Made by a program: the position numbers and the translations under genes. DNA of 63,992 nt, filler included, from Licmophora abbreviata (lineage: Eukaryota): the NCBI GenBank assembly GCA_900291995.1. It is 47 parts of 47 records of this genome, joined end to end, with 100 filler letters (N's around TTAATTAATTAA, not from the genome) between each part and the next. Parts side by side here need not be neighbours in the genome. Positions count along the whole stretch, not along the records: positions 29,310 to 30,573 come from OLMU01006639.1; 46 more parts are not named here. One strand, written 5' to 3'. The notes beneath the pieces are model-generated. The model was not told where the DNA came from. It made no database searches and saw only the letters and a list, made by a program, of their open reading frames with translations. Positions 4,260 to 55,925 of this stretch are shown one piece after another; positions within the stretch are counted from its first letter, which is position 1; every line of letters begins with the position of its first letter.

Positions 4260-5572
4260 GGTCGTTCAGGCCGCTCGTCGGCTTCATCATCATACTCGAC
4301 CGTCCCCTGGAGCCGGGGATCGGCCGTCTTCAAAGATCCAAGTTGAATAATGGAAGGATTCCAGGACGCGCGACTGGTCATGTCGATATGGGGGCAGATC
4401 GCTAACTCTCGGTCAGTAGGTACCCGACTGGAGAAACGAATCTTGGTTCCTTCTGCGGCCATGTTGATACGCAGATCTGGGTAGGCTTCAATACAGAGTC
4501 CCCTTTCAACATCAAACGGGTTGTCCCAATAAGGGACACCATACTGTCGGACCTGATTGGGGTTGATCAAGGAATGGTTCAGCTTCTCCCCGTAATATAG
4601 GGACTCATGGAATACCAAGATGTATGTACTGCCAGTACTGGGATCATCGTAGGCAGTGGCTCCAGTAACAATCGGGACAGAAGTCGTGGGCGCAATGGTG
4701 TCATCATATGCATAGACATCGGCAATCCGTTCAGTGGCCTGAAGTACTTTGAAGTTCTTACCAAGAACGCAGGTATCAGCGTTGCTGTCGGTCTCATTGT
4801 ATGCAAAGGTATTGGGAGGTGGATCAGTCCAGGTACGTTCGGCACGAGCCGACCTGACATGACGTATCGTCTTCACTGCATTGATCCTCCGACCTCCTTG
4901 GCCAGAATGCCGTTGGCTAGCTTGTTCATTGCGTCCACCCATCATGGATTGACCACCAGTCATCTGGCTAAACCGTCCCGCATCGGTGCCTGTGTCAACT
5001 TCGGTCGGCGGTCGATCGCCGCCATCAGTTGTACCACCGCCTGACAATCGTGATTGTAATTCACGAATGGTTCGTCGGTCGCTTTCTTTTTCACGGTATG
5101 CAGTACGGTCGCGTCGCAAGCGGTCTTTGTCTTCCTGCTTGAACTTAGCATATAGATGCCCAGGGAACTTGAAGGACGGGTGGTATTCAATCTTCTGACC
5201 ATCCGTGAGCGTTATGATCTCACTGTCGGTCCTGGTACGCTGAACTTTGTGATCCTTTTCTCGACCACCACGTCCGCCACGTCCCCGGCCGCCACGGCCA
5301 CCGCGTCCCCTACCGCCGCGACCACTGTAAGAGTCTAGTCCCCTGACTTGACGTCTTTGAACATTCGCCGAGTTGAGCTGAGGAGGGAATTTCATGTTCA
5401 CTTGGTTCCTGAATGAGGCCAGGGCCCGTTCGTACGTCATTCGCAACGGGATCTCAGTAAGTGCAATCTGTATGCCCGCCTTGGTGTCCTTCAGGAAGTC
5501 AGCGTCAACTTTGCTGATCAAAATACGTAGCTTCATCGCATCCGAATAGACCTGGCGTCCTTCTTTCTTGTC
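4260..5572 (-). mobile_element. Ty1/copia gag-pol fragment (gag end plus aspartic protease)
   Basis: RGG-rich segment, then ETDSNADTCVLG (protease active-site motif) and HSLINPNQVR, typical of diatom copia elements. Confidence 0.8.
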
Positions 5573-5672
5573 NNNNNNNNNNNNNNNNNNNNNNNNNNNN
5601 NNNNNNNNNNNNNNNNTTAATTAATTAANNNNNNNNNNNNNNNNNNNNNNNNNNNNNNNNNNNNNNNNNNNN

Positions 5673-6104
5673 AAGAGCCTTTCGTCAACCGACACCTTCC
5701 GAAGACGCAATCCCGGTCAAGTATGCAGGATTCGCCTTTATTGAAGCGCTCGGCCAAGCACATTTTCCTTATTTTGTGAGATTTGGAAGGAGGTTCGGGT
5801 GAGTATTCGTAGTGTCAAACGTTCCTCAATGTTGACGACTGACGGAGAGTCGGTCGTTGTCTTTCTTACCGCGAGAGCAGTCGGCGTCGATCAAACAGGC
5901 GTCTCCCTTCTTCCCGGTTTCACATTTTTTACTAATCCCACACACACCACAGTCCTTCGGACATTTGGAGCAGCTCTCGCTCGGAAAAGTACATTCCCCA
6001 TTGCCGCAGTCGCTTTTTCCCAAGTCGAGCTCCATATCCCGATATTGATCCGCAACCGATGGAGTGAGCAGCAGCACCAGACGAGCGAGTCTTAAGATTC
6101 GCAT
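5673..6104 (-). CDS. Putative secreted Cys-rich protein (5' part)
   Basis: Signal-peptide-like start MRILRLARLVLLL, then CGNGECTFPSESCSKCPKDCG and a C-x3-DC repeat. Confidence 0.5.
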
Positions 6105-6625
6105 CGTCTCTTTCTCACAGGAAACTACAAACAAGAGTGTATTGTCTAGGTTCAATCACAGTCATACTCGTATCTTTCATCGCGCCATTGCCAACATGAA
6201 ATATATACTAGACTATCAATACAACTGATGGCCGTTTGTCTGAAGAGAAATTCAAATTTCAAATCACGTTCGTTGTTTCTGGTATCATACCAGGCAGTAT
6301 ACATTGCGTTACCAGGTACTACCGGTACCAGGTACAGACTGCGGGCACGTGAGGATGGGCCAGAAAAGCGATTTCCATCGCTATCGCATTCCTAAATGAG
6401 GAGATGTACAATGGTTCGCTTCTTAATCGCATCCGGTTGAATAGCCTAGAGCGCTATGAACTTTCACGACTTGGCTCGACCGATTTCATCGACTATAGAC
6501 TCGAAACGAACGAGCTAGCACTCAGGCCTGATCTAGCGTGACTTACCAACCTAAAACATGAGCTAGGGCTAGGGTTAGGCTATCGCAAAAAACATTCCGG
6601 ACTATTTTTGCCTCATCACAAGCCT

Positions 6626-6981
6626 CTACAGCCTAGGATTCCGTCCCCTTGTGCGCCCCTCTGTTCCATGAACTACAGATTGCTCCTCCTCGGGAGGTCC
6701 CTGTACGTAGCGGTAGCCGCCAATGATGCTGTCCGACTTCATGCCATCCTGTGTGATCACGTCAACCACCACGTCAACAGTTCTACCCGCCGTCCCCGGG
6801 GGAATGATGCACGACAGCGAGTTATCCTTAATAGGTTCATTCGTGAGAGGGCAGTCCTGGCCGCCCACAGTCACCTGGGGCAGCGTTCCTGAGCTTCGGC
6901 TATCAAGATTTCTGCCGTAGACGGAGAGTACACTACCTCCCTGCCACAGCCCTCGTCTCGGAAATATACTCTTGATTCGAA
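6626..6981 (-). CDS. C-terminus of an IPT/TIG-domain protein (partial)
   Basis: SIFPRRG..GGS..SVYG.NL....VTVGGQDC...LSCIIPPG pattern. Confidence 0.6.
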
Positions 6982-7081
6982 NNNNNNNNNNNNNNNNNNN
7001 NNNNNNNNNNNNNNNNNNNNNNNNNTTAATTAATTAANNNNNNNNNNNNNNNNNNNNNNNNNNNNNNNNNNNNNNNNNNNN

Positions 7082-8390
7082 GTCTTTATACATAGCGCGT
7101 GTATGTGCGCTGCTAAGTCGCAGCAAGATGTTGCGCCAGCTGTCGTGGTCGCCGACCAAAGCGGCGATCTTGGTGCAGTATGGTTTCGCGCGAAGCCAGA
7201 GTCCCTGAGATGCTTTGCGCCGTGCCCGACGATCCGCTTCCATATCAAAAATGGTTTGGAGTCCTTTGCTGATTTCTTTGTCAATGGAGAGTGTACGCCA
7301 TCGTATTTGGAATCGGAGTCCAGTCGGGCAACGGAAGTTGTCAGGTCTTTCGAAAAGGTCAGTGCAGGTTGCTCCAGGGAAAGTACCAATAGCTAGGCTC
7401 GCAGCGTTGTCTGCAGCTTGATTGGCTGCCACCATACTCCAGCACGGCGTGATTCGGGAGTATCTGGATCCCTTCACTCCATAGCAATCGATCTGGTGGG
7501 AGTCGATTTTGATTATAGCCCGGTGCATGTGGTCGTCCCAGTATTCAGCCGGCCATGGCGCTTCCGGATCACTGCTTATATGTTGTTTCAATTGGCAGGT
7601 GCTGACAACGAGTGCTGCCCTTCTTGCCATTGGGATATTACACTGTATGGTCGTGTCCCATTTGGTGAGGTTGCGTTCAAGCCTGGCCGAAATCGATTTG
7701 GAGATTCCCGGGAAGGTGCGGCGAATGAGTTTCCTATCTCGTTGTCCCAGGTGGCTATCACGAATGGACATGTAGGCGCCTCTCGCTATTTTGGAGTCGG
7801 AGATCAACAGCGCAGTTGCATCGAGTGGGAGCATCTCTTCCGCGAGGCATAGGGCGAGTGCCTCCCCGTGGTTGTTGTCCGTCAGTTCGAAACCTATCCG
7901 TTCAGGCAACACGGCAATGCGAATGTGAATTGGTGTGACTGTGTTCCCTTGAATAGAGAGGAGGACAGCCGCAGCAGCAGTGGTTGGTTCAAGGTCATCG
8001 CTTGCATCCAGGTGGCCCGAGTCGACAGATACCATCGCACAGCCGTCGACGGCACCGGCGGCCTGAAGGACGGCTAGGTCACGCTGCCAGTCGAGACGGT
8101 GTGCTTCGATAACTCTGTCCGTTGTCTGCTGTTGCCAGTTATCATTGCAATGTGGTCCTGCAATGTCTGTGGGAAGGTCAATTTGGTTTTGTTTCCAATC
8201 AGTACTGAGCCACGGATTTGTGTCGGTTTCGGATCTGGTCCATGCCATGTAAGTGAGGGGTCCCTTCGTGTCGGCAATGAGGTCCTGCATTGCTAGTTCC
8301 GCCGCTCGTGCCAAAGTCGCAGTGTTGACTTTTGGGAGTCTCCGCGTTTTCTCTTTCCAAAATGCTTGCCTGCAGATGTCTCGAATGGGG
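7082..8390 (-). mobile_element. Non-LTR (LINE) ORF2 fragment containing an RNase H domain
   Basis: Open through the contig. RNase H catalytic set in order: AVDG, NNHGEALA, LISDS, KIDSHQ, NQAADNAA. Confidence 0.7.
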
Positions 8391-8490
8391 NNNNNNNNNN
8401 NNNNNNNNNNNNNNNNNNNNNNNNNNNNNNNNNNTTAATTAATTAANNNNNNNNNNNNNNNNNNNNNNNNNNNNNNNNNNNNNNNNNNNN

Positions 8491-9505
8491 GTACTCAATC
8501 ACGTCGCCTGCACGGAGCTTTTCTTTCTTTTCATCTTCGTCCAACGATTCTTGATCGGAGTCATCAGTCATCCCAGCCTGTGCACTGCTACTTGCATTTG
8601 TTTCCATGATGGACTCGTCAAAGAGCACCGTGGGAGCATTGGCCTCCCCGCGTCTTTCCTCCTCTGCCGCTTGCTCCTTGCGCCGTGCCTCCTCCAAGAC
8701 GCGCTGTAGAAAGAATCGCTCTACCAAAATCCCCTTCCTATCCAGCTTGTTTGCAATATGCTTCTCGTATCGGTTCCAATACTCTGGACTCCAAGACGCT
8801 TCGTCGTCTCCTTCATCCGTCGTCGCTGTGTTGGCATCGACAGTCTCCGATCGTCCATGATAGGGGCGTAGCTGCCCCCACTTGACCTTAGAGTATTCCC
8901 CAGCTGCCACTTTGTGATTGTGTGCTAGAAATCTAACAATGGTCTGCTTGGCGGGGTCCAGCGGTTTCCCCTGAATGCTGGACAGATGTTGCGCTTCCGC
9001 GAATGGACGTATTTCGCAAGGCGAGAAGACGGAGCCCTTCTTGTTGGGCTTGAAAGAGTGCCAAAAGAGTTTTGAGGGAGACTTGGAGACAAACGATTGA
9101 TCGGACAGGAAGGTATAAACGATCTTGCGAGCTGCAGTAGCAAGGATATGAGTAGGCGGGGCAGTCAGTGAGGTGCATCGATCGAGCAGGACGATGGGCG
9201 GCAGGGCACAGAAATTGGAAACACCAGCATGAAAATTTCTGTTCTGGTCCTGCCGGAATAAACGTCCACCAGTACACTTGATTCCTCCGTTTCGTACCTT
9301 GTGCTTCTAAAGGTTGGATTTGAGTGGCGCTGGGTGCTTCTGTGGACGAATCGGACTCTTGCGTGACAGCATTGGTACTGCCCACAGCCGGCTTGGGAGC
9401 AGACGCGGCGTTCGCAAAGGGACTCGGTGCCGTCGTTTCTAGATCGTCGTCGTCACTCTCCTCTTGCGTCAGCAACTCGCTGTCGAAAAGGCTCTTTTGC
9501 GACAT
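8491..9505 (-). CDS. Hypothetical eukaryotic protein (5' part, probably spliced or frameshifted)
   Basis: Two consecutive acidic, low-complexity minus-strand ORFs. No family recognised. Confidence 0.45.
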
Positions 9506-9933
9506 GCTAGGGACCAGGGATCAAAGCGAGAGGCAGAAGTACAGTAGATATAGTCTACTGCATTCATGCCACTTTCAACTTGGTGTTTTGTGGTTGATTT
9601 TTTTGTTTTCTTGAGGATGTTCGATGTGTCAACCGCGAGACTTTTGGACGCGCGTCGGTCTTCCCGCAAAAAAAATGTTCGTAGAAGCCTACAAGAAGTC
9701 AGTACTAAAAGAGACATTTGTATGACCAAATAAATAAATCCATGCTCACAATTTGACCTCACTTTATGATGTGTGATAGTCGAAAGAGTCGACAGTNNNN
9801 NNNNNNNNNNNNNNNNNNNNNNNNNNNNNNNNNNNNNNNNTTAATTAATTAANNNNNNNNNNNNNNNNNNNNNNNNNNNNNNNNNNNNNNNNNNNNACAG
9901 GCTTTTCAAATAGTCACAATGTCCACCAAAGCA

Positions 9934-11201
9934 CTACGTATCCACCACAAGCGCATCCAACGCGTCTTCATATTGCTCTGGCATATGATCGGTAATCATA
10001 TCTTGACAGACGAAGACGTTCATATCGGCCACGTCGCTCGGACTGCAACCGAAGGCGTCAAAGGACCCAGCAAAGTTCTTTTTCATCCAAACGACGACCT
10101 TGGCTGGAATTCTCAGTTTGGATGCCACATCTGACGACTCGGCGCTGCGCCGAAGATCTCCAGTCTCGGCGTGTTGGACAGCATCCGAAATGACCCGCGG
10201 GATCGTGTCCCATTCCCAGAAAATCCGGAACCGTCGATAAGCCCACATGTGCTCTGTTTCATTGTCAACAGCGTCCATCAGGATCGCCAATCGACGAATG
10301 CTTACCACTGACAACAGCGGAACACAATCATTATCATGAATATAACAAACCGAATTGTCAATGGCCTTTTGTACTCGAGCGGCTGTCAAAGGATCTTGCA
10401 GAGCCTCGGTAGGGAAGTACGTTGGCGGGGGTGCAAACCCATAACACCGCACTTTTCGGTCGCCCAAGAGCTGCTCCACATGACACTTGACATTCAATAA
10501 GCACGCCGTGCCCGCTCCTAGACTATGCCCACATATCACAAACGAGAAATCCTTTAGCAGCTCGTGCTCGTCCTCAAAGAGCTCCCGAATCTTGTCACCC
10601 GACCCGTTCCATACATTATCTGCCATCTCGGCCATGCCTTTGTGTGATTTACCACAGCAAAAGTCAAAATCCATTGCTTTCATGTCGGTCAAAGCTCCCG
10701 AGATGCTGAGCGTCCCACGCAGTGCCAGCACGACCGATTTCGTCTCTCGGTCAATGGCCACAAAGTGCCGCAACACCTTCATGTCCCCGCCATCATTGAC
10801 ATAGAGAATGACAAGGTCCTCCTCACTGACACCAGCGTGAAATGCGATCGCCTTCTTTTGGTTTTCTAGTTCTTGAGGGCGAGCTTCTCGATCCAGCGCG
10901 CTTCGAATCATCTCGGTGCCATACGCTGAAGAGTAAATATGAGTATGTAGAGTGAGGGATTGCTAAGTGGAAACAGTACGGACTCATCTTCCCTCAAGAT
11001 TGCACAGACTTACCGGCAGTGGCAAAACGCATCATCCTGGAGGACAAAGCACACACACACAAAAAGTCAGCACGAACCTTCATAATGACTACCGAGGCGA
11101 AAAAGTATATTAATCGTCCTCACCTTTGTCCCTCTTGAATAGGCCCCTGTAGTTCCTCCGCAGTACACATTTGAATTCCACTGCACCGATCTACGTAAAG
11201 C
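9934..11201 (-). CDS. Lipase class 3 (diacylglycerol lipase-like), 3' part, spliced upstream
   Basis: VVLALRGTLS, HKGM, GHSLGAG nucleophile elbow, DCVP, DHMP. Confidence 0.9.
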
Positions 11202-19652: not shown

Positions 19653-20936
19653 ACCATTATGACACTCCCTCTCGAACAAAGCACCATGTACTAAGTACTC
19701 TTCGTGGACTAAACATGTAACATGTAACTTGAGATTCCTTGTAGATCACCAACCGCATAGAAGGAGGCGTATCTCTTGAAACTTGGCTTTGCGCAGCGCC
19801 TTCGTGAGGATGTCCGCTCGCTGAAGCTCTGTAGGGATCTTCTTGATTTCGACGCTATTCGGTTTCAACTTAGAACGAAACCAATGCATCTTGACGGCGT
19901 AGTGCTTGGACCTTGGGGTAACGCGACCTGGCTCCATATTGCCTAGGATAAGCGCTCCAGTGTTGTCTTCCCACACAGTCGTCTTGAAGCTTGTAAGGTA
20001 GTCTGCGGCCATGCCGATGCCACTTGCGACAGCACGTACTACTTCCTGGAAGGGAAGGACAGCTCGCATCGCAAAAGAGAGGGCATTATATTCACTCTCC
20101 ATGGTAGAAAGAGCAATGCTACCTTGTAATTTACTGACCCAAATGACAGGGCAGTTGGCGATGCAAATTGCATAGCCTGTTCGACTCTTGACGCAGTTTG
20201 GGTCCATCTTGTCTTCGAAACCCCACATGCCGGCAAAATCGGCATCAACGTAGACGTCAAGGTCTAAGGACTCAGACGGGCGGAGAACCAATCCTTTGTC
20301 CAATGTGCCTTTGAGGTATCGTCCGATCCTCTCGAGCGCTTTCTCATGAGAGCGTCGTGGCGAGTGTGTGTACCGAGCACATTGCGATACAGCAAAAGTG
20401 ATGTCAGGTCTTGAGTGACCTTGTAGGTAGCCAAGCATTCCAATGACGCTCGCATAGTTGTAGGTAGAATCTCCCATTTCACCGTCTTTGTCAGCTCCTA
20501 GTGCCCCATGCTCAGCTGGTGTGTCGATTGCTGGTTCTGAACCAATGTTCAGTGCATCTACGATTCGCTTCGCTAGTCCTTCTTGAGTCAGGGTGATGGT
20601 TCCTTCCGACTCGTTACGTTCGATATGAACGCCGAGGAATCCAGCTACGCTATCTTCGCGCTCGAAGTCCATTTCTGCTTCGTTGAGCTTGTCGAGAACT
20701 TCTTGAATGTGCTTGGGGTCTTGTGCATACAGCAAAGTGTCGTCTACGTACACTAGTATGATGCATGTCTTTGAGATGAAGAGACACGGATCGGCGGGTG
20801 ACTGCTCGAATCCGATCGCAACTAACTTGTCCTTGAGATGTTGGAAGAAATTTCGAGGACTTTGGCGAAGTCCATAGAGTGACTTCTTTAACTTGAGAAC
20901 CTTTCCTGGCTCCTTGAATCCTCTTGGCATCTCAAC
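19653..20936 (-). mobile_element. Ty1/copia RT-RNase H end (stop 19746), polypurine tract ~19665-19673, start of 3' LTR (TG at 19664)
   Basis: KSLYGLRQSPR, YVDD, VDADFAG, STMESEY, WEDN, QRADILTK; minus strand reads GAGAGGGAG-TGTC. Confidence 0.93.
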
Positions 20937-25185: not shown

Positions 25186-25608
25186 ACCATGCCTTCGGCG
25201 GCGGCGGATATCGCACATGACCACGCGGCCCACGATCATGGACAGGGCGGGCACGGACAGGGCGGGAGCCACGATCACAAGACCCTCACCGAAGTGGGGG
25301 ACATGGCGCCGGTATTGACGCTGAGCATTCATCCCGACGGGCCGCAAAGCCGCAACCTGCATATCGGTGTGACCGGCTTCACCTTTGATCCGGAGGGGGT
25401 GAACGGCACGCATATGCCGGGTCACGGCCACGCCCATATCTATGTCAACGGGGTCAAGATGCCCCGCGCTTACAGTCCCTGGGTGCAGCTCCTGGCACTG
25501 CCGAAAGGCACACATGAGATCCGCGTCACGTTGAACGCGAACGACCATTCACAGCTGGCCCGCAACGGCCAGCCCATCGAGGCCACCACAAGGGTGGTGA
25601 TCGACTGA
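25186..25608 (+). CDS. His-rich putative periplasmic metal-binding protein (partial)
   Basis: HDHAAHDHG..H, GHGHAHIYVNGVK..RAY, VTLNANDH; lies directly upstream of cobW. Confidence 0.7.
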   Translation, partial: TMPSAAADIAHDHAAHDHGQGGHGQGGSHDHKTLTEVGDMAPVLTLSIHPDGPQSRNLHIGVTGFTFDPEGVNGTHMPGHGHAHIYVNGVKMPRAYSPWVQLLALPKGTHEIRVTLNANDHSQLARNGQPIEATTRVVID

Positions 25609-25648
25609 GCGCAAATCGCGCATCCCCGTATGTCAAGGAGAGACCCTG

Positions 25649-26462
25649 ATGCCCGCCAAGATACCCGCAACGGTCGTGACCGGTTTCCTAGGGGCCGGCA
25701 AGACCACCCTGATCCGGCACATGCTGGAGAACGCCAACGGCAAGCGCATCGCGCTGATCATCAATGAATTCGGTGATCTTGGCGTCGATGGCGGCATCCT
25801 CAAGGGGTGCGGCATTGAGGGCTGCGCCGAAGAGGATGTGATGGAATTGAGCAATGGCTGCATCTGTTGCACCGTGGCCGATGATTTCATTCCCACCATG
25901 CAAAAGCTGCTGGACCGCGAGACTGCGCCCGATCATATCGTGATCGAGACGAGCGGGCTGGCATTGCCGCAACCCTTGGTGAGAGCGTTCAACTGGCCCG
26001 AGATTTCCACCCGCGTGACGGTGGACGGGGTGGTGACGGTGGTCGATGGCAAGGCCGTGACCGAGGGCCGCTTTGCGCATGATGTGGCCGCCGTGGACGC
26101 GCAGCGCGCGCAGGACGAGAACCTGGACCATGAAACGCCGCTGTCGGAACTGTTCGCCGATCAGGTGGCTTGCGCCGACATGATCGTGGTGAACAAGGCC
26201 GATCTTCTGGACGAGGCCGAAGCGGCCGGTCTGGTCGACAAGCTGCGCCGCGACAGCCGCGATGGCGTGCAGGTAATCAAGGCCACGATGGGGGCACTGC
26301 CGCTGGATGTTCTGCTGGGTCAGGGTGTGGGCGCCGAGACCGATATGGACGCGCGCCACGAGATCCACCATCACCACGCGCATGACGACGATCATCATGA
26401 CGATCACGATCACGATCACGATCACGATTATGACCACGATCACGACGCGTTCGAATCCTTTG
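25649..26462 (+). CDS. cobW: Cobalamin biosynthesis GTPase CobW (5' part)
   Basis: GFLGAGKTT, INEFG, NGCICCTVADDF, IETSGLALPQPL..FNWP, NKAD, His/Asp tract; GGAG RBS. Confidence 0.93.
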
Positions 26463-29309: not shown

Positions 29310-30573
29310 GCCGCGGTCGCAGCGCCATTCGTGGCTTCACAAAGCGTGCTACGGTGGAGGCATGCTTGGTCTCTAGCTGGGTCTGCGCTCCGGGCGGTTG
29401 CACCTCTAGGTCTTGCAGAGCCAAGGTGTCAAACTGGGGGGTCGAAGTCGGTCCGTCCAAGTGGGATTCCATCGGGTCCGGTGTCTCGCATGTGATGTCG
29501 GGGAGCGTGAAGAGAGAGGCTACACGGACCGGAGTCAACAGGAGAACTTCGTGGTCAGTTTCAATAGGGCCACCGTGATGGGTGTTCCGCAAGACGAACG
29601 CCGTGTACTTCCACCCTTTGGGAGGCGGCATGAGCTTGCGCGCTCGGCTGAAGACACTGGGCCATCGGATTGGGGCTACTAGCATGGTGGCTTGGGTGTC
29701 GCAGTGCGTCCGGAGGGTCGAGGCGAAGTTTAGAGATTTACGGCACCAAGTCTCCAGGGCGGCGTCAGGCTTTCCCACCGGATCGATGCTTCCAGTGTAG
29801 ATGGCGACTTGCCATTGGACCGTCGGCACGTCCTCTGAAGGTATCTCCGTTAGCGCGCGTGTCCAGGTGTCCAGCTGCTGGGTGCGCCAATCGGCAGCTG
29901 GTGAGGGGGTTGGCGACGGACCGTCTTCCAGCGCGACGACAGGGGAGCTCAGAGGGACGCCTGCACCGTGCAACGCTTCCTCTATTGGGATACCCACGCT
30001 GCCACAAGAGAGTATGGACCGGGTCCATCCCATGGAATCTGGCGTGCTTGGGTGGTCCGACGTATTGATCCCAGCAATTACGCTCGACAGGTGAGCTCGG
30101 AGGTCGCTCGATGGCACCGGGGCTAGGCAGGAGAGCGAAGCAACAGAAGTGGTAGACTGATGTGGCCGCCAGTCAGCCGTACTGGCGTTGTACCTCGACA
30201 GCACATCGCATTCTTTCATCATGGCTGCCGGCCTGTGCTCAATGGTGAAGTGGAACTGAAGTAGCTCAGCCCGCCACCGTTGAAGCATGTGATTGGCACC
30301 AGCGTCGCCTTCAAAGAACTGTCGAAGGCCGCCGCAGTCAGTCAGCCACGTGAACTCGGCCCCGATGAGCCATTTCCGGAATTTTCCAATTGCCCATCTG
30401 CCTGCGGCCGCTTCTCCAACATACGAGTGATAGTGTTGCTCCGGTTTGCTCGTCTGACGGTCTAGGAAGGCGATGGGGCGCAGGCGAGGGCCTGAGGCAG
30501 TGCGGTCGAAAGCACACTTCGCGCCGTCGGCCTCGGCTGCCTCCCTTTCCTTCCCTTGTTCGTCGTCTGGGTC
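29310..30573 (-). mobile_element. Ty3/gypsy pol fragment: RNase H followed by an extra methyltransferase-like domain
   Basis: Single frame RLRPIAF..HSYVGEAAAGRWAIGKFRKWLIGAEFTWLTDC..LQRWRAELLQFHFTIEHRP..CDVLSR, then ~290 further aa. Confidence 0.8.
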
Positions 30574-30673: not shown

Positions 30674-31936
30674 GAACACCTGAGAGGCGCCGAGCACGGC
30701 GGCGGCGCGGGGGGTCATGCCGTCCTGGCGGCGGCGCTGGATGTTTTCGGTCACCACGATGGCGTCATCGACCACCAGCCCGGTCGCGAGCACCAGAGCC
30801 AGAAGGGTGATGAGGTTGATGGAAAAGCCCATGAGCCAGATCCCGGCGACCGAGCCGACAAGGGCCACCGGGATCGCGACGGCGGGGATCAGGGTGGCCG
30901 ACAGGCGCCCGAAGAAGAGCCACATGACGCCGATCACGATCAGGAGGGCGGCGCCCAGTGTCTTGAGCACTTCGGCGATGGCGCCACGGATGAAGACCGC
31001 GTCGTCGCTGGTGACCTGGAAGCCCAGATCGGGAAAGCGCTGCCGGAGCTGCGAGATTGCGCCCTGAACCTGGTCGGAGATGCGCACGGTGTTGGATTGC
31101 GCCTGTCGGACGATGCCGAGATTGATGACCAGCCGCCCGTCAAGGCGCGCGACACTGCTGGGGGTGGCGAGGCCGAAATAGACATCGGCCACATCGCCCA
31201 GACGGATCCGGTCGCGCAGCATCAGGTCCTCGATGCGGGCGGGGTCGGCGACGGTGGCGTCGGCGCGCACCAGCACTTCGAGAGGACCCGAGGAAAAGCT
31301 GCCGACCGGCACATCGAATTGCGCGGCGCGCAGCACGTTTGCCACCTCGCCGATGGACAGGCCGAACGCGGCCAGACGGTCGGGCCGGACCGCGACGCGC
31401 AGGACGCGCTGCCGGTCGCCGAACAGCACCACATCGGCCACACCGTCGATGGCGGTGAATTCGGGCACCAGAGCGTCCTCGACCAGCCGGGTCAGAGCGT
31501 CGATCGAGCGCGCCTCGCTCCAGACGGCGATATTGACGATGGGATCGGCGTCCTGTTCGGATTTGACCACAAACAGATCCTCCACCCCGTCGGGCAGGCG
31601 GTTCTCGACGCGGCTCACGGCCTCGCGCACATCGTTGGAGGCATTGGCCAGATCGCGGTCGGGGCTGAATTCCACGCGCATCCGGAAATTGCCCTCCTCG
31701 GAGGAGGTGCGCACCGCCTGTACCCCGGCGACGCGGGCGACGGCGCCTTCGACCACGGAGGCCAGTTCGGCATCGACGGTGGTGGGCGAGGCGCCGGGGA
31801 AATTGGCCCGGACCGACACCACGGGCCGATCCACATCGGGCAGTTCGCGCACTTCGATGCCCCAGAGCGCGCCGATACCCGCGATCATGATGAGCAGGCT
31901 CATCACCGCCGCCAGATAGGGGCGGCGCACGCTGAG
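30674..31936 (-). CDS. RND efflux permease (AcrB/AcrD/AcrF family), 5' part, bacterial
   Basis: RRPYLAAV, VRELPDVDRPVVSV, IPAVAIPVALVG, INLITLLALVLATGLVVDDAIVVTENI. Confidence 0.93.
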
Positions 31937-32036: not shown

Positions 32037-33298
32037 TGTGTGATGTGAACCAAAAATATGCCCCATTCGTCACTACCGAGAACGGGAAGCGCGTACTGTA
32101 CGTGCGGCTTCTGAAAGCGCTGTATGGATGCGTCAAGTCTGCGTTACTCTGGTATGATTTGTTCGTTACCACTTTGAAAGGCAGAGGTTTTGTGATCAAC
32201 CCGTATGATCCATGTGTGGCAAATTGTACCATAAACGGCAAACAATGTACCATCGGATGGTACGTCGACGACAACAAGATATCACATGTGGACCCGGCTG
32301 TCGTTACAGAAATTATCGAGCTGATTGAATCGCGTTTCGGTAAGATGACTGTCACTCGAGGTAAGCAACATACGTTCCTGGGCATGGATATCACTTTTAA
32401 CGACGATGCCAGTGTCACGATTACCATGAAGGACTACATCCGTGAGGCCGTGAGTGATTTTGGCGAAGATGTATCGAGGCCAGCTGCGACGCCCGCTGGC
32501 AAGGATCTGTTTGAGATCGAAGAGACCGCTGAGCCCCTGGAGAAGACCAGGAGCGAGTTGTTCCACAGTATCGTCGCGAAGCTGTTGTATGTTTCGCAGC
32601 GTGGCCGCAGCGACATTTCACCAACAATCGCTTTCCTTTGTACGAGAGTGTCCCGCAGCACTGCCCAAGATTGGAGAAAGCTGAAGCGTCTACTACAGTA
32701 CCTGAACAACACCATTGACCTTGCTTGCACCATTGCAGCTGACAACCTATCGAGCCTAATGACATGGGTGGATGCATCCTATGCTGTACACAACGACATG
32801 AAGAGCCATACTGGCGGTGCATTATCTCTCGGCCGTGGCGCGATTATGTGCAAGTCCACCAAACAGAAATTGAATACGAAGAGTTCGACTGAAGCCGAGA
32901 TTGTTGGTGCTAGTGACTATCTTCCGAATACTATCTGGGCACGCATGTTCATGGAGGCCCAAGGGTATGAGATACATCGAAACGTTTTCGCGCAAGACAA
33001 CCAGAGTGCAATGCGACTGGCCACGAACGGCCGTGCATCCACTGGACAGAAATCCCGACACATCAATATCCGACATTTCTTCATCACCGACCGAATGAAA
33101 AGCGAAAAGCTGAATATAGTTCACTGCCCCACCGAGTCCATGTTGGCCGATTTCTTCACTAAACCGTTGCAAGGTCGTCTCTTCCGCAAGTTTCGCAGTG
33201 TAATTCTCGGCCATGAACCTGTCAGTGCGCTACTCGACGAACCGACGTCTCGACCCATTATGAACCAGAACGAACCGCCTCCCCAGTCTGAGGAGCGT
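32037..33298 (+). mobile_element. Ty1/copia RT-RNase H (second lineage); contig ends at a probable PPT/LTR boundary
   Basis: KALYGCVKSALLWY, YVDD, WVDASYAVH, SSTEAE, QDNQSA, LADFFTKPLQG; terminal GAGGAGCG-T. Confidence 0.93.
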
Positions 33299-38810: not shown

Positions 38811-39834
38811 CGCCGCTACGATCAGATTGGCAGCAGCTCTCTGGGTCGTCGAATGGCGGCGTTGTCGTGGGATGCGTGTAGCCAGCATTGTGGCTCAGCT
38901 CGTGCAGGAATACTTGGGCAACTCTAGTATCACTTTGACTGAGAAGAGTGTTGCGGCAGAGACCAAGGCAGGAGCCTCCTATTGAGGCTCTGGCGTTCAG
39001 CCATCTTATTTCATCATTCTGGCAGCAGACGACTTGAATGTCGGTTCCGCTCTCAAACATTCTCAACATCGTCTCCCTGACGGATGTATCAACTGGAGGA
39101 CTGGTGTTACAGTTCCAGAGTGCTTTGATGGCAATCCGCGATGCTCGGTAAATTTGTAACTCCTCATTATGAGTGGCCGAGGATATAGGCGAATTGATGA
39201 TCAAGTCGAAATATGCCAAAGGCAATTCTTCATATTCAAAGCACTGTGCTGGGACTACCAGCGTGTCGTAGTATGGGCCTGGAAAATCACTGGCAATTGT
39301 TGCAGACCCGAAACTTGGATGATATCCGAATGCAGTCCTGTCGACATTGTTTTGGATGTACCTATTGATAGCTCGGAAAGTGTGCGGGACATCGTTCGTT
39401 CTGTAGTCGACCAGAGAAGTGCTGATTTTGTACATATAGGAACCTGCTCCTCTGAAGAATACAATCGCACCTCGGACTCCTGGGCTATTCCCGTAAGTAG
39501 GATAGCCAGCGAGAAACCCCTTCCGTACAGCCCAGGAGTGCACTTCTCTTAGCGTTGACGCAAAGTCAGGGAGTGGACCCAACTCACTTTCCGGAATGGT
39601 GGTCAGGGCAGCGCATTGAGTACGAAATCGAACGTTGCCGCCAACCTCTGCAGATGGGTTTTGCCAGCGGCCCCTCTCAAAATTGTCCATTCCACCGCTG
39701 AAGCCTAGCTGCGAAATGGCATAGCGAAATCGGGCAAGGAAGTTATTCTCCAACGAGAGCGACAAGGCTCTTTTTAGGATCAAGAGAGCCAACGCAACCA
39801 GAAGAACTTTTTTTGGCCGAATAGTGTGGTTCAT
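38811..39834 (-). CDS. Putative secreted HExxH zinc metallopeptidase with N-terminal degenerate repeats (partial)
   Basis: Signal-like leader, three ~55-aa degenerate repeats, NARAS, AQVFLHELSHNAGYTHP. Confidence 0.6.
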
Positions 39835-39977
39835 AGTCTTGGCAATCTTCTCTCTTGAAAAGTATCGAATGTGCTTGCAGTGTACTATCGGGCTCGATAA
39901 TACCTTTTGCACTCGGTGTTACGACAAGATATGAACTGCTCAGTAAAACGACGCGGATAGCGACGATGGTTATCATA

Positions 39978-40058
39978 CAAGAAAAAAATAAAAAAATAAA
40001 AAAATAAAAAAATAAAAAAATAAAAAATAAAAAAAATTAAAAAAAAATTAAAAAAAAA
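39978..40058. repeat. A-rich microsatellite (A6-8T)n
   Basis: Directly visible at the contig end. Confidence 0.9.
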
Positions 40059-41506: not shown

Positions 41507-42752
41507 ATCGGTGATCGTAGGGTAGGTGGGGAAGACGTCGGTGACGGTGACACGGGATGTGAGTCCAGTAGCGGGGACACTATCGTATCAGGATCAGGCG
41601 GCGGTGACGGCTCAACTGCATCTGGGGGAGATGTCGTAGTAGTTAGACGACGACGACGAGCAGCTCGTGTCTCCATCTGTGGACCAGAGGACGACTCGGT
41701 TACCATATTGGAAGAAATCGGTAAAATGGATGAATCAAATTTCGCGTTGGAATCCCGATGGCCAATCGATGATGACGGCAACGTGTTATCGGATGGAATC
41801 TGGGACTGAATGTCATGATAGTCAAAACTATCCGATGAGATATTAGTCACAGACGTCACACATTCCGATGGAAGTAAACAATCAGTGGTGTCATCAACAT
41901 CCAGAATGAATGTAGGAAATGTCAAGACACACTGTAGATTGTCTGCGATGAAAGAACAGCCAGATTGTCGACGGTGTTTGCGGACCGAAAACAAAGGCGA
42001 TCGTAACCCCGGGACATGCAATGCATTACTCACTTGAATCAATTTAGAACTGGATTGGAAAACCCAACTCCCGATACCACACACTGGTAGCATACCCTTT
42101 TCGTCCGCCAATTGCACATGGTGGGAACCCTCCGGAAATGGAGTATACTGACTGAATGCCTGACGGTGGGGGACCATGTGGTGAGTGGATCCACTATCCA
42201 CAACAATCGATGACGATCCCGATTGAGATCTTGACTGCGTAGTCGAAGCCGCATCAACACAACCCAAACAAATACTGGTGTCCAACGGAGTCCACTGTTC
42301 GAAAGAGTCCGATACCTCGGAAGACCCGACATATTCAGCTGAGCAAGGAACTACTAAGTGGTTATCGTCTGTATTATCTGAGTCCGCAGCAGATATCACA
42401 GGATGCACCTTTAGAGACCGAACGTCACTATCCAACTCATCTGTCTCAAACATCGATTCATCATCCTGAAGAGGAGAGAATCGATTAGACGATCGAGAGG
42501 ATGTGAAGGACGGCATTAGTAAAGGTGAATCACTGGGAGGCTGAGGCACAGATTTTACAGGCGATAACCACTTGCCTTGGTGTTCCGTAGAGGCAGACGA
42601 GGACTCCATAGTCGGTGGTGGAGGAGGAGAGCTAGAGGAAGCCACACGGGCAGCCCAGGTTAGCTTCTTATTATCCTTCTTGGTCGACGAAGCTGCATTC
42701 GATGACGTCGCAGCGCGGGGAGACTCCTTGATACCTTCTTTGGGAGAGGTCG
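41507..42752 (-). mobile_element. Ty1/copia pol fragment (aspartic protease region)
   Basis: IVVDSGSTHHMVP..AF..Y..VQLAD..V.GIG..LHVPGLRSPLFSV. Confidence 0.85.
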
Positions 42753-45537: not shown

Positions 45538-46778
<1,241 letters not shown>

Positions 46779-46890
46779 NNNNNNNNNNNNNNNNNNNNNN
46801 NNNNNNNNNNNNNNNNNNNNNNTTAATTAATTAANNNNNNNNNNNNNNNNNNNNNNNNNNNNNNNNNNNNNNNNNNNNTAAATTGAAGAT

Positions 46891-46925
46891 ATATTAAATC
46901 AGTTAAAAAGTAACCGATTTAATAT
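46891..46925. terminator. Plastid 3' stem-loop downstream of psaL
   Basis: ATATTAAATCAGTTA-aaaag-TAACCGATTTAATAT inverted repeat. Confidence 0.7.
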
Positions 46926-46937
46926 GACGACTGATAC

Positions 46938-47393
46938 TTAGAATATAAGGGCAGGGATACTCGAAAGACAAATAAATGCAAATCCTGCACTACCACAAGC
47001 ACCTACAAAGAATCCTCCCTTAAACTGATCCCATGCTTTTTTAGTTTGTAAATCAGTATCAGTGGTTGAACTTTCACTACTATCTTGGCCAAAAGTTGCT
47101 ACGCCATAAATAGTTAAACCTAATGTTAGAATTAAAATTAAACCAATTGTCGAAAGAAAACCTGCAAGTAAACCAATATCTGAATCACGTAACGGTCCTA
47201 ATTTTACAAAAGGGCCCATTAAAAAATAACCATGTGCTAAACCGATTTCTAAACCACGTAATAACGGAGTTAATCCAAATCGATATGCTGGTAAATTTTT
47301 TAAAATTGCTCTTGTTACTGCGGATGATGTAATTGGCGTTGCTAAATGACCTACAAATGGGTCATCATTATACGGTTTAATAAAATTAGCCAT
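46938..47393 (-). CDS. psaL: Photosystem I subunit XI (plastid)
   Basis: [40 protein letters not shown]-rich context. Confidence 0.97.
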
Positions 47394-47574
47394 AAATTTA
47401 TTTTAAAATTTAATGAAATTAATAATAAAATTTTTTGATTAAATTAATATACGGTCGACAAAATTTAATGAAAATTTTTACTAACCAAAAATTTTATATA
47501 GATTACTATATAATATATACTAATATATAGAAAAATTTTTATAAACTTCATTTTAATAAAATAACAAAAATTTT

Positions 47575-47670
47575 ATGACACTTGCTATTGACTATTTTTT
47601 ATTAGTAGGATTTTGCTTTGCAATCACTTCTGGTTTATATTTAGGGTTAAAATCTATTAAATTAATTTAA
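47575..47670 (+). CDS. petL: Cytochrome b6f subunit VI (plastid)
   Basis: 31 aa MTLAIDYFLLVGFCFAITSGLYLGLKSIKLI, in the psaL-petL-ycf4 order of red-lineage plastids. Confidence 0.9.
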   Translation: MTLAIDYFLLVGFCFAITSGLYLGLKSIKLI

Positions 47671-47691
47671 TTATTATTAAGTTACGATAAA

Positions 47692-48118
47692 ATGCAAAAC
47701 GAAATTCGTCAAGATAATATTATTGGATCAAGACGTTTTAGTAACTATTTTTGGGCTTTTTTTCTATCTATTGGAGGATTAGGATTTTTGTTAGCTGGAA
47801 TGTCAAGTTATTTTAAAGTTAATTTACTTCCATTTACAAATACAACAGAATTAGCTTTTATTCCACAAGGTTTAGTAATGATGTTTTATGGTACATTAAG
47901 TTTAATCATTAGTATCTATATTATAATTACTATTATTTTAGATATTGGGAGTGGTTATAATGAATATAATAAAATAGAAAATCTTGTTAAAATAGTTAGA
48001 AAAGGATTTCCTGGGAATAATCGTCAAATACTTTTAACATATCCATTAGTAAATATTAGAGCAATCGGTATAAAAATTACCGAAGGATTAAATCTGACAA
48101 GAAGTATTTACTTATGTC
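47692..48118 (+). CDS. ycf4: PSI assembly protein Ycf4 (5' part)
   Basis: GSRRFSNYFWA, FIPQGLVMMFYG, GSGYNEYNK, GFPG.NR. Confidence 0.96.
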
Positions 48119-48218: not shown

Positions 48219-49304
48219 TTCAACCACCTCCTCAAGGCCATCCTTGAGCTAGGCCTCATCCAGAGTGCGGTCGACCCATGCCTCTTCTTTCGACACGATC
48301 TCGTCCTCGTCCTATATGTCGACGACGGCGGCATCGCCTCCCGTCACCCAGGCATCGCCGACAAGTTCATCTCCGACCTCCGCGCCAAGGGATTCGACCT
48401 GACCAAAGAAGGAAGCTTCGCAGACTTCCTCGGCATCAAGTTCACCCAACAAGATGATCAAGAGTACAAGCTCACCCAGCGTGGCCTCATTGACAAGATC
48501 ATCGGAGCCGCCTGTCTAGAAAACTGCAAGCCGAATCTCCTGCCAACGACCCAGCTCGCACTCGGCGCCGATGTCGATGGACCCGCGATGAACGAATGCT
48601 GGAGTTACCCATCAATCGTCGGCATGCTGCTGTACTTGGCGGGAAACAGCCGCCCAGACATCGCTTTCGCCGTCAGCCAGGTCTGCCGCTTCACTTCTGC
48701 TCCCCGACAGAGCCACGCCACGGCAGTCAAGACCATCATCCGGTACCTCGCCGGCACTCGGGACGAAGGGACGATCATCCGACCGACAGGAAGACTCAAC
48801 CTCGACTTGTTCGTCGACGCTGACTTCTGCTCACTTCACGGTCGCGAGGATTCGCGTGATGTCAACTCTGCGCGCTCGCGCACGGGATACATCATCCTAC
48901 TGAGCGGTGTACCTCTACTGTGGAAATCCCAACTCCAAACCCACATTTCCCTTTCTACGCTTGAGGCTGAGTATTCGGCTTTATCTTATTCTTTGAAAAC
49001 ACTCATCCCTCTCAAACGCATCCTCCTTGAACTCGTCGCCGCTCTCAGCATCAACCAGGAAATCAGCTCCTCTGTTCAAGCCCGTGTCTTCGAGGACAAC
49101 CAAGGAGCATTGACCCTCGCCTCCAACCACCGTGTCACCAACCGCACGAAGTACTTCCTCGTCAAGTGGCACTGGTTTTGGCAGCACTCCTCCGAATTCC
49201 TGCTCCTCAAGGTCGCCTCCGTCGACCAGCGTGCCGATTATCTCACCAAGGGCCTTCCCCGCGACGGCTTCGAGCACAATCGTCTCCTGGTTCAACGATG
49301 GTGA
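48219..49304 (+). mobile_element. Ty1/copia RT-RNase H end (third lineage)
   Basis: DPCLF, YVDD, SRPDIAFAV, FVDADF, STLEAEY, FEDN, QRADYLTK. Confidence 0.93.
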
Positions 49305-49554
49305 CATGAGGCACCATCACTATATGTCAAGACCTTCTCGATCAAGATGTACATCGAGCCCCGCTCCTTGGAACTTGCTCACACGTTCAACAAGGTCTTT
49401 GTTCACTCAGTCCCACTTCATCTTTCATCTTTTCTTTATTTTCTAAGAAACCATNNNNNNNNNNNNNNNNNNNNNNNNNNNNNNNNNNNNNNNNNNNNTT
49501 AATTAATTAANNNNNNNNNNNNNNNNNNNNNNNNNNNNNNNNNNNNNNNNNNNN

Positions 49555-50786: not shown

Positions 50787-50954
50787 NNNNNNNNNNNNNN
50801 NNNNNNNNNNNNNNNNNNNNNNNNNNNNNNTTAATTAATTAANNNNNNNNNNNNNNNNNNNNNNNNNNNNNNNNNNNNNNNNNNNNGTGGAGTAGCCCCC
50901 TGAAAGTGGTCCGCCAACTGGGATAGTTTTGTCCCGCAAATTGGAGGATCAGCG

Positions 50955-51233
50955 ATGGCTGGGAAACGAGAGAGGCCCGAAGAGATAGTATCGAAGCTTC
51001 GGCAAGTTGAAGTTCTGCAAGGGCAAGGCATGACGATAGCGGATGCGGTGCGCCAGATCGGCGTGACGCAACAGACGTTCTATCGATGGCGTAAACTGTA
51101 TGGCGGGATGGGTCGGTCTCAGCTCAAGCGTCTGAAGGAGCTTGAGAAGGAGAACCAACGGCTGCGGCGGGCAGTTTCCGATCTGACATTGGACAAGCTC
51201 ATATTGACCGAAGCTGCGAGGGGAAACTTCTGA
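50955..51233 (+). CDS. IS3 OrfA (HTH plus leucine zipper)
   Basis: QTFYRWRKLYGG..LKELEKENQRLRR. Confidence 0.93.
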   Translation: MAGKRERPEEIVSKLRQVEVLQGQGMTIADAVRQIGVTQQTFYRWRKLYGGMGRSQLKRLKELEKENQRLRRAVSDLTLDKLILTEAARGNF

Positions 51234-52081
51234 GCCCTTCGCGTCGTCGCAAGTGCATCGATCATGTGCAGCAGGAATTGGGCGTGTCTGAGCGTCGTGC
51301 CTGCCGCACCTTGGGCCAGCACCGTTCGACACAGAGAAAGGTTCCGCAAGGCCGGGCCGATGAAGAGCGGCTGACCGATGATATCATTGAACTGGCCGAC
51401 AAATATGGCCGCTATGGCTATCGCATGGTGACGGGTTTGCTGAACAACGCTGGCTGGCACGTGAACCACAAGCGGGTCGAGCGTATCTGGCGACGCGAAG
51501 GGCTGAAGGTCCCACAAAAGCAAAGAAAGAAGGGGCGGCTTTGGCTGAATGACGGGTCTTGCGTTCGGCTCCGGCCGAAGCACCCGAACCACGTCTGGTC
51601 ATACGACTTCGTCCAAGACCGGACACATGACGGGCGGGCCTATCGCACGCTCAACATCATAGACGAATTTACCAAGGAGGCACTAATGATCCGCGTCGAT
51701 CGCAAGCTAAACTCAACCGATGTGCTGGACGCTTTGACGGACCTGTTCATCCTGCGCGGGCCACCAGAATACATCAGGTCAGACAACGGCCCAGAGTTCA
51801 TTGCACAGAAGGTGCGGGACTGGATCGTCGCCGTAGGTGCCAAAACGGCCTATATCGAACCAGGGTCGCCGTGGGAGAACGGATATTGTGAAAGCTTCAA
51901 TGCCCGGTTCCGAGATGAGTTGCTCAACGGCGAAATCTTCTACAGCCTGCGGGAGGCCCAAATCCTGATCGAGAAATGGCGCATCCACTACAATACGGTC
52001 AGGCCGCACAGCGCACTGGGCTACCGCCCACCCGCGCCAGAAAGCATCGTTCCGATGGACCAGAGGCCTACAATGCACTAA
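51230..52081 (+). CDS. IS3 OrfB DDE transposase (-1 frame relative to OrfA)
   Basis: WSYDF, SDNGPEF, PWENGYCESFN, RPHSALGY. Confidence 0.93.
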   Translation: MSPSRRRKCIDHVQQELGVSERRACRTLGQHRSTQRKVPQGRADEERLTDDIIELADKYGRYGYRMVTGLLNNAGWHVNHKRVERIWRREGLKVPQKQRKKGRLWLNDGSCVRLRPKHPNHVWSYDFVQDRTHDGRAYRTLNIIDEFTKEALMIRVDRKLNSTDVLDALTDLFILRGPPEYIRSDNGPEFIAQKVRDWIVAVGAKTAYIEPGSPWENGYCESFNARFRDELLNGEIFYSLREAQILIEKWRIHYNTVRPHSALGYRPPAPESIVPMDQRPTMH

Positions 52082-52317
52082 CGATTAAAATGGACCACCC
52101 GATGGGGGCACGCCANNNNNNNNNNNNNNNNNNNNNNNNNNNNNNNNNNNNNNNNNNNNTTAATTAATTAANNNNNNNNNNNNNNNNNNNNNNNNNNNNN
52201 NNNNNNNNNNNNNNNCTCAAAGTCGAGGAGCGACTAGCATTCGAGCGTTCGACCTTTGCTAAGCCACCACGCCACTACCGGTACGGACAAAAGCAGGGTG
52301 CAAAGTGTACAGTAAAG

Positions 52318-54874: not shown

Positions 54875-55925
54875 CCCATCATGTCACTCAAGGAATGAGA
54901 CACCACTGCACATTATGAGTTGCCCAGCAGAAACGAGAAAGAAGAAAAGAGAAAAAGCACAGAGAGATCTTATCACCAGCACCCTTTTAGCAAGCGACAC
55001 AGCGTTGCCTATTTACCAAACAATCACCACAGCGATTCAGACATGGACCACATCACCGAGCGACAGTCCGATCCCGATTCCAGAACCATCAACGGATGAT
55101 CCGCTACAAGCCACTCTCGCGTTAGCAATCTCGGAACAACACATCATCGGCTGGGAAATGTTCATGCGAGGCATCCTCTCCAAAGAATGGGCGGAAGCAC
55201 AACGACTATACCTGCAGGACCGATTCCCAACAACCGGCTCAAGGAAGCTCCTTACATGGCGACGCAAACTAATACAGGCGTTATGGCACTTTGGGGAGCA
55301 AGAATGGAAGGCACGCAATGACGACCTGCACGATGGTGACGAATCTTCCACATGCAGAAAGAACCAAAGATTGATACAAATGTACTTCGGAATCCAAGAT
55401 GAATACAACGAAAGAGATCGACACATTCTCTTCCACAATAAGCAGGCACTCATCGAAAACACCACACAACATCAACAGTCGTGGATCGACAATGCACAAC
55501 GCCTTCTCAGTGCAAGACAGGAAATTCAATACCAGAAGAAAGTTAAACAGGGTGCAAACCAAACAAGAGACACAATGGAAACAACACACGCCAAAGGAGG
55601 GACACAACAGAGGCGACGACACAAGTCAGGACAAACCAATACGATGGATCGATACCTCATTCGACACCCCACACAACCGACCCCGCATCGAACTACGATA
55701 CCACGCCACGACACAGCAGATTCACAGCCCAAGCAAACAGAACACACGGAACAACCTCAAAAACGATACTAACCTTCAGACAGATGCCGCATCCAAACAA
55801 AGCACCACCAGACACAGACATGACCCCGCCAAAGAAAAGTATTAAAGGACGCCGCCCTTCGGGGGCCGCAAGTACCAGAGGTTCCTATCTCGAAAATAGG
55901 TAGTGTAATCTCGGTTCTTTAACAA
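54875..55925 (+). mobile_element. LINE ORF2 C-terminus (stop 55772) and 3' UTR
   Basis: PSC..ETPLHIMSC knuckle, then Q..IGW..F.RG.LS.EW...Q, W...LI..LW.....W..RN..LH, typical of diatom LINE ends. Confidence 0.7.

Follow-up and report, generated by a model that had tools for sequence, protein, structure and literature searches.

Results

A gypsy-type pol fragment with a methyltransferase-like module

The window analysed here is a stretch of 63,992 nucleotides from the genome assembly of Licmophora abbreviata (GCA_900291995.1), and the subject of this study is one contig within it, OLMU01006639.1, at positions 29310 to 30573. The minus strand of this contig reads through 421 codons as one open frame, with no stop and with both ends open (translation P0001), and by its translated sequence the contig is a pol fragment of a Ty3/gypsy-type long terminal repeat (LTR) retrotransposon. 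The frame runs from the ribonuclease H (RNase H) domain of the reverse transcriptase (RT) through a Ser/Pro-rich linker into a second domain, hereafter the module, which a preliminary description of the locus had read by eye as a catalytically dead C5 cytosine DNA methyltransferase (C5-MTase). The peptides quoted in that description are all present in the minus-strand frame at their positions (Table 1), and the RNase H that it placed upstream of the module was confirmed by a PF17917 match over aa 27-107 (E 7e-13). In tblastn searches, the pol proteins of three full-length relatives matched the contig at E 7e-77 to 2e-81. A search for the rest of the element with these three pol proteins and one ORF1 protein (tblastn, E≤1e-3) matched no other contig of the window.

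The window joins 47 contigs of 1189-1320 bases in descending order of length, with N44-TTAATTAATTAA-N44 spacers between them. Because the joined contigs are unrelated, adjacency within the window is meaningless and nothing beyond 29310-30573 counts as neighbourhood. A chance open reading frame (ORF) was considered for the minus strand and is ruled out by the 421 open codons together with 46 homologues; ORFs of up to 138 aa on the plus strand of this GC-rich contig are without support. Short, low-depth pieces of the contig are present in marine and oyster metagenome contigs from four studies. Among the sequencing runs with such pieces none is listed as RNA and one is only guessed to be RNA, which has no bearing on expression.

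Table 1. Features of contig OLMU01006639.1, with positions counted along the window. Motif places are inferred from the register of the structural model on M.HhaI, and counts are taken over columns of the family alignment.
Feature	Position	Strand	Remarks
Whole contig	29310..30573	-	1264 bases, 61% GC; limits set by N runs
RNase H of reverse transcriptase (aa 27-107)	30253..30495	-	PF17917 RT_RNaseH E 7.1e-13; PF17919 E 7.7e-7
RNase H end CDVLSRYN (aa 122-129)	30187-30210	-	Minus-strand frame
Ser/Pro-rich linker from RNase H to the methyltransferase-like domain (aa 130-184)	30022..30186	-	Poorly conserved, gappy alignment
Predicted methyltransferase-fold core (aa 185-366)	29476..30021	-	Strand 1, helix A, strand 2, helix, strand 4, long helix, strand 5, helix, strand 6-7 hairpin
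Peptide RSILSCGSVGIPIEEALHGAG (aa 185-205)	29959-30021	-	Minus-strand frame
Glycine loop after strand 1, G191-S-V-G194-I-P196, motif I place	29986..30003	-	G 13/17; G/A/T 16/17; P 17/17
Peptide VVALED	29923-29940	-	Minus-strand frame
Glu216, end of strand 2, place of the motif II ribose-binding acid	29926..29928	-	E/D in 17/22
Peptide EDVPTVQWQVAIY	29797-29835	-	Minus-strand frame
Y259-T260-G261 after strand 4, place of motif IV F-P-C	29791..29799	-	Y/F 22/30; P 18/30, T 7/30
Peptide LNFASTLRTHCDTQATMLVAP	29671-29733	-	Minus-strand frame
V299-A300-P301, end of strand 5, place of motif VI ENV	29671..29679	-	P301 35/40, P305 36/40; no E-N
Peptide GWKYTAFVLRNTHHGGPIETDHEVLLL	29536-29616	-	Minus-strand frame
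Signature L-R-N-T-H-H-G-G-P-I-E-T-D-H (aa 328-341), strand 6-7 hairpin, place of motif VIII QxRxR	29551..29592	-	Family alignment
Variable region after the hairpin, start only (aa 367-421)	29311..29475	-	Alignments; cut by contig end; low AlphaFold2 confidence

The predicted fold of the module

For structure prediction with AlphaFold2 (AF2), aa 175-421 of the frame were used with a 47-row alignment. The model has a mean predicted local distance difference test (pLDDT) score of 77 and a predicted template modelling (pTM) score of 0.70, and over model residues 60-150 its pLDDT exceeds 90. Its elements follow in the order strand, helix, strand, helix, strand, long helix, strand, helix and a terminal two-strand hairpin, which is a class I Rossmann methyltransferase fold ending in the antiparallel strand 6-7 hairpin. 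The core of a second family member, P0011, was modelled at a pLDDT of ~90. As a prediction, the assignment of the module to the class I S-adenosylmethionine (SAM) methyltransferase fold is solid.

A Foldseek comparison with the PDB gave 185 matches at E≤1e-3, with DNMT1, M.HhaI and MET1 at the top (E 2e-5), and the AlphaFold and Foldseek check that the preliminary description had suggested thus returned the methyltransferase fold it expected. In a second look at the PDB, which is redundant for DNMTs, DNMT-type proteins made up 37 of the best 50 entries. VIA-align, run on 48,161 non-redundant chains, scored 3g7u and aTrm4 at 10.0, DIM2 at 9.9, DNMT3A2/3B3 and EhMeth at 9.7, NSUN5 at 9.6, DNMT1 at 9.4 and M.HhaI at 9.1. 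Judged by title, its best 50 rows are all of methyltransferase fold and 20 of them are DNMT-type, DNMT3L included; the DNMT-type chains were aligned over 160-187 residues, whereas most other methyltransferases reached 125-150. Named cytosine methyltransferases were also the commonest named class among 50 rows from BFVD (15, beside 18 unnamed and 17 other).

C5 cytosine methyltransferases (M.HhaI, DNMT1, DIM2 and the prophage protein 3g7u) therefore rank first across three structure libraries, and within the PDB DNMT-type chains come first by both aligners and for both models. The model lies on M.HhaI in a near 1:1 register, with model residues 9-189 on HhaI 10-186. Judged from the models, the resemblance to C5 enzymes in particular holds from library to library and for both family members, by a narrow margin. 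The collinearity with the C5-MTase core that had first been seen by eye is thus borne out by the Rossmann fold, by the C5 enzymes that head the structure rankings and by the HhaI register, but not by sequence comparison, which gave neither a PF00145 match nor a significant hhalign score.

Conserved residues at the places of the C5-MTase motifs

Within the family the loop after strand 1 follows the pattern GxxG/A-x-P where C5-MTases have FxGxGG. A catalytic cysteine is absent at the motif IV place, where the residue after Y/F-P/T is variable and Cys falls outside the six commonest residues of the column and occurs in at most 2 of 29 members. The most Cys-rich column anywhere in the alignment reaches 15/34 and lies in a helix, and no column is mainly Cys. 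The most conserved motif is a nearly invariant family signature, LRNTxHGGxIETDH, in the terminal hairpin, which has I-E-T-D-H where C5-MTases have QxRxR. The counts are N330 36/41, H333 34/41, G334 33/40, G335 37/41, I337 39/41, E338 36/40, T339 36/40 and H341 38/40. Overall, conservation is strongest at positions that line the substrate cleft of C5-MTases, namely the loops after strands 4 and 5 and the hairpin residues N..HGG.IET.H. Compared with M.HhaI (2uyc/10mh) and the prophage CP-933R methyltransferase (3g7u), which we take to be a C5-type enzyme (its PDB title is 'putative DNA modification methyltransferase'), identity is 7-9%, every catalytic motif residue differs, and the model is without strand 3.

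The loss of catalytic residues noted in the preliminary description therefore holds family-wide for PC, ENV and QxRxR/RxR, whereas that of FxGxG is partial, with Gly in 13/17, Gly, Ala or Thr in 16/17 and P196 in 17/17. C5 chemistry needs a cysteine nucleophile. Since the module has none, and is also without ENV and QxRxR, its sequence excludes methylation of cytosine at C5. Cofactor binding may still be possible because the glycine loop and the strand-2 acid are retained, so that the module may be called a pseudo-enzyme, or dead, with respect to C5 chemistry only.

In the alignments of relatives, the variable region gives way to segments of the form CRxIRxxElxxLxGl and PGxHG..A, similar to motifs IX and X of C5-MTases. 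This layout, in which strand 7 leads into a long variable stretch and then into a conserved R..E..LxGh segment, is typical of C5-MTases.

Relatives and element architecture

When aa 130-421 were run with HMMER against all 1.84 billion representative proteins, 46 matched at E≤1e-3, ten of them at E≤1e-10 and the best at E 5e-23. The majority of the 46 are short fragments, and the matches start at about query residue 42-57. A word-indexed homologue search with the same region found no near-length protein at E≤0.01, and the ESM Atlas gave no usable match.

The full-length relatives show the gypsy-type pol order of RT, RNase H and integrase, and their integrase has both the H2C2 zinc finger and the rve core. 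The 1862-aa protein P0003 has RVT_1 at 160-326, RNase H at 403-556, the domain match at 671-899 and Integrase_H2C2 at 1140-1198, and the order RVT_1, RNase H, module, Integrase_H2C2, rve, SH3_Tf2-1 recurs in the independent locus L020. The module is also followed by Integrase_H2C2 in P0011, in P0019 and in the ORF of locus L016. It thus forms an insert of ~450-540 residues between RNase H and integrase, of which the window carries the first two thirds. No integrase zinc finger lies within the 421-codon frame, as had been pointed out earlier; the relatives, however, carry a normal integrase after the module, with Integrase_H2C2 ~240 aa further on, past the point at which our contig is cut. The frame halts at aa 421 because the contig ends at 29310. 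Past the SH3-like domain of the integrase, the long pol tails of P0003 (1700-1862) and P0048 (1780-1940) contain an acidic stretch as well as a W-rich segment that is conserved, and no Pfam chromodomain match was found in these tails.

A degenerate DNA pattern derived from the signature motif was used to find metagenome loci, and 17 were obtained. The frame through the motif is at least 400 codons long in 10 of the 17; in the other seven it spans 96-299 codons and is cut by stops or contig ends. Locus L020 is a unit of ~10 kb with an ORF1 of 927 codons (1231-4014) and a pol of 1901 codons (4015-9723). This pol contains RVT_1 (274-436), RNase H (516-671), Integrase_H2C2 (1215-1273), a weak rve and SH3_Tf2-1, with the signature motif at residue 912, and ORF1 has no Pfam match. 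The preliminary description had considered that the element might encode an active DNMT at another place; Pfam searches found no second methyltransferase in the pol or ORF1 of this complete relative, nor in P0003, which speaks against that proposal. A single in-frame TGA separates ORF1 from pol in L020 and suggests that pol may be expressed through stop-codon read-through. The ends of the locus are identical over 127 nt (1-127 and 9982-10108), and they look like an assembler overlap closing a repeat (collapsed LTRs or tandem copies), not like resolved LTRs.

Selection on the module

Loci L020 and L011 are two diverged intact copies (dS ~0.75-0.88). Between them the ratio of nonsynonymous to synonymous substitution rates (dN/dS) is 0.132 for the module (266 codons, dS 0.745) and 0.127 for RT/RNase H (678 codons). 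Between L011 and L019 the ratios are 0.135 and 0.116, respectively. Since its dN/dS equals that of RT/RNase H, the module is held as strictly as the core enzymes of the element. The expectation that the region would be conserved among relatives was therefore confirmed, both by the 46 matches and by purifying selection at a dN/dS of 0.13.

Other contents of the window

The window is mixed in content, with eukaryotic contigs (Copia-type RVT_2, transporters, ARM repeats), AT-rich organelle-like contigs and GC-rich bacterial contigs (AcrB, CobW, an insertion sequence (IS) integrase). Copia-type RT (PF07727 RVT_2) in three contigs and a Pol beta-barrel (PF22936) in one (19653-20936, 32037-33298, 48219-49454 and 41507-42752) belong to other retrotransposon families of this assembly, with no relation to the methyltransferase-like domain. 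The GC-rich contigs 25186-26462, 30674-31936 and 50887-52115 encode bacterial-type genes (CobW, an AcrB-type efflux pump and an IS-type integrase with HTH_21/rve/rve_3) and are probably bacterial DNA co-assembled with the eukaryote. Contigs 45538-46778 (38% GC) and 46879-48118 (26% GC) are AT-rich and look organellar; their frames may correspond to cox1 and a photosystem I subunit, which they resemble by eye. Telomere-like repeats of the CCCTAA type stand at 56089-56100, the end of contig 54875-56100, and a run of A at 40050-40058 ends contig 38811-40058.

Discussion

In the present study, a domain that lies after RNase H and before the integrase in a gypsy-type family found in marine metagenome data was shown to have the predicted fold of a class I methyltransferase, to be under selection as strict as that on RT, and to be devoid of the residues that C5 methylation requires. 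As the best explanation, with belief and doubt in equal parts, we propose that the module is a selected methyltransferase-fold domain, probably C5-derived, that is unable to methylate cytosine C5 and likely binds DNA or chromatin for the integrase. Its descent from a captured C5 DNMT, to which the structure ranking and the layout point, seems rather probable. We infer with more hesitation that the module's present role is that of a non-methylating DNA- or chromatin-binding part of the integrase complex, for targeting or for protection from silencing. In such a scheme, a DNMT-type domain would have been captured into a gypsy pol and would then have diverged past sequence detection. As a non-methylating binder of DNA or chromatin, the module would accompany the integrase, and it might influence where or how the cDNA integrates, or shield the cDNA from silencing.

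Several results weigh against this explanation. Sequence comparison does not recover a C5-MTase: Pfam finds nothing beyond RNase H in the translated frame at E≤10, PF00145 included, and none of the 46 family members matches PF00145 at E≤10 (HMMER filters drop most matches above ~0.1). An NCBIfam search gave nothing relevant, and a PDB sequence search and a family-profile PDB search gave no methyltransferase, only a chance match to NDUFA13 at E 0.89. An hhalign comparison with E. coli Dcm and five phage C5-MTases, a shallow reference profile of 6 sequences, was not significant (P 0.16-0.37, with values of 0.37, 0.16 and 0.27). Its best local pieces, also not significant, are nonetheless collinear with motifs I-IV and motif IX, where the structural register predicts them. 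One pairs AVYP with GFPCQ across helix A, strand 2 and strand 4, and the other pairs a segment of the relatives past the window, CRPVRLPEVFRMLGIED, with Dcm RRLTPRECARLMGFEA (motif IX) at E 0.16. We take this collinearity as a qualitative pointer, and a weak hint, to C5 ancestry. The structural evidence has its own gaps. COMT, METTL16, TrmK-like and other methyltransferases come close behind the DNMTs in Foldseek, and the margin of the DNMTs over generic methyltransferases is less than 1 Z unit, which is a tie by the standard of the tool. Strand 3 (motif III) is missing from the AF2 model, in which residues 42-59 are of low confidence, and the target recognition domain (TRD) and motif IX/X part of the relatives, beyond our contig, was modelled at a pLDDT of 35-72 and aligned to no DNMT. 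With regard to selection, dN/dS was noisier and higher (0.2-1.2) in very recent pairs and in pairs with degraded copies, and recent pairs by themselves reached 0.3-0.7 or more, as expected if these insertions are decaying. Finally, the retained glycine loop, the acidic end of strand 2 and the invariant His/Glu/His fit a live enzyme equally well as a reader.

Such an enzyme would use non-canonical chemistry: it would bind SAM or another nucleotide, and the N330/H333/E338/H341 cluster would modify a target other than cytosine C5, for which a different atom of DNA or RNA, the hybrid of RNA and DNA formed in reverse transcription, or a protein are candidates. The usual cofactor contacts are kept in the family (G 13/17, G/A/T 16/17; strand-2 acid 17/22), conservation peaks at the cleft-lining loops with their near-invariant His, Glu and His, and purifying selection on the module matches that on RT/RNase H. 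However, no known methyltransferase catalytic motif (PC/TC cysteine, (D/N/S)PP(Y/F), K-D-K-E) was recognised by eye, the model lacks strand 3 together with the adenine-binding motif III region, and there is no family profile match in Pfam or NCBIfam, so that we think a live enzyme, although the main alternative, unlikely. A different origin of the fold is conceivable as well. The module could be a class I methyltransferase captured from outside the DNMTs, for instance an RNA 5-methylcytosine (m5C), 2'-O or small-molecule methyltransferase, and its likeness to DNMTs would then reflect the common fold. This is a rather unlikely origin in view of the structure searches, in which DNMT-type chains come first in the PDB by both aligners and for both models, are the commonest named class in BFVD and align over 160-187 residues rather than 125-150. 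The two best hhalign pieces, though not significant, also fall at collinear motif I-IV and IX places, and the layout of the relatives after strand 7, a variable region and then R..E..LxGh, is C5-MTase-like.

The remaining alternatives are less easily reconciled with the family. In analogy to DNMT3L, the module could be an inactive regulatory partner that modulates an active DNMT of the element or the host. DNMT3L has lost its cofactor-binding motifs, whereas the window family partly keeps such motifs in its glycine loop and acid, and no second methyltransferase was detected in the L020 pol, in ORF1 or in P0003. Furthermore, DNMT3L (PDB 2pv0, 2qrv) is encoded by the host and not by a transposon, and has no counterpart of LRNTxHGGxIETDH. 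Such a role therefore appears improbable. It is very improbable that the module is a strongly diverged adenine methyltransferase domain of the DAM type, as it occurs in LTR retrotransposons, in some of them between RT and integrase. According to the available text of a recent preprint (10.64898/2026.05.21.726589), the known domains keep Asn-Pro-Pro and hmmsearch detected them at E≤1e-5; here no NPP stands at conserved columns, 0/46 members have a Pfam methyltransferase match at E≤10, and no Dam-type structure is among the best 50 rows of VIA-align or of the second PDB look.

The closest known system, judging from the available text of de Mendoza et al. 2018 (PMC5890265), is KnitGypsy-Dnmt3 of Klebsormidium nitens, in which a Dnmt3 lies inside a Gypsy Pol. 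As in our family, a DNMT-type domain within Gypsy Pol is there under purifying selection (Ka/Ks <0.2, compared with 0.13 here). In KnitGypsy-Dnmt3, however, the key functional residues are described as conserved and CG methylation was proven in yeast, whereas the window family matches no DNMT profile and is without PC, ENV and QxRxR. The same text describes SymbioLINE-DNMT and SymbioDIRS-Dnmt3 of Symbiodinium, with conserved catalytic positions that are detectable by Pfam. These too are cytosine-methyltransferase-type domains in retrotransposons of marine microbial eukaryotes, but they belong to the LINE and DIRS classes, unlike the gypsy-type window family. In the available part of the preprint cited above, the DAM-LTRs and EpiLTRs carry either adenine methyltransferases with a conserved Asn-Pro-Pro pocket or, at the 3' end of pol, DNMT4-like DNMTs. 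They resemble our elements in a Ty3/gypsy-like pol with a methyltransferase-fold domain, which lies between RT and integrase in one clade, yet the window family has neither the Asn-Pro-Pro pocket nor a DNMT4-like 3' DNMT.

In a full-text literature search, no publication was found that describes a degenerate DNMT-like domain placed between RNase H and integrase; the supplements of two key papers, which lay outside that search, may bear on residue conservation. The available part of a paper on diatom DNMTs (PMC9998398) does not mention such a domain. The window family differs from the known retrotransposon DNMTs in that it is undetectable by profiles, has lost all C5 catalytic residues and has an invariant motif of its own. 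Since the published screens rely on Pfam matches, they miss a family whose methyltransferase-like domain has drifted past profile detection.

It is a recent finding that retrotransposons carry working DNA methyltransferases, which suggests that transposons manipulate host silencing marks. The results presented here indicate that a methyltransferase fold can stay under selection of RT strength after losing every C5 catalytic residue, and selection that persists after this loss implies that the module renders another service to the element. A fuller scenario, which we put forward only tentatively, is that a marine gypsy clade domesticated a C5 DNMT, kept its base-flipping cleft and target-recognition part, and replaced the methyl-transfer residues with invariant His/Glu/His. 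The product would then be either a reader of sequence or methylation state that steers the integrase, or a new chemistry on DNA or an RNA-DNA hybrid. If a C5 DNMT was indeed domesticated in this way, it would be the first pseudo- or neo-functionalised DNMT known within a transposon, unseen by the Pfam-based screens for DNMT and DAM domains. As a module adjoining the integrase, it might expose a new means of integration-site choice or of silencing evasion, and the family offers a test case for the origin of pseudo-enzymes in selfish elements.

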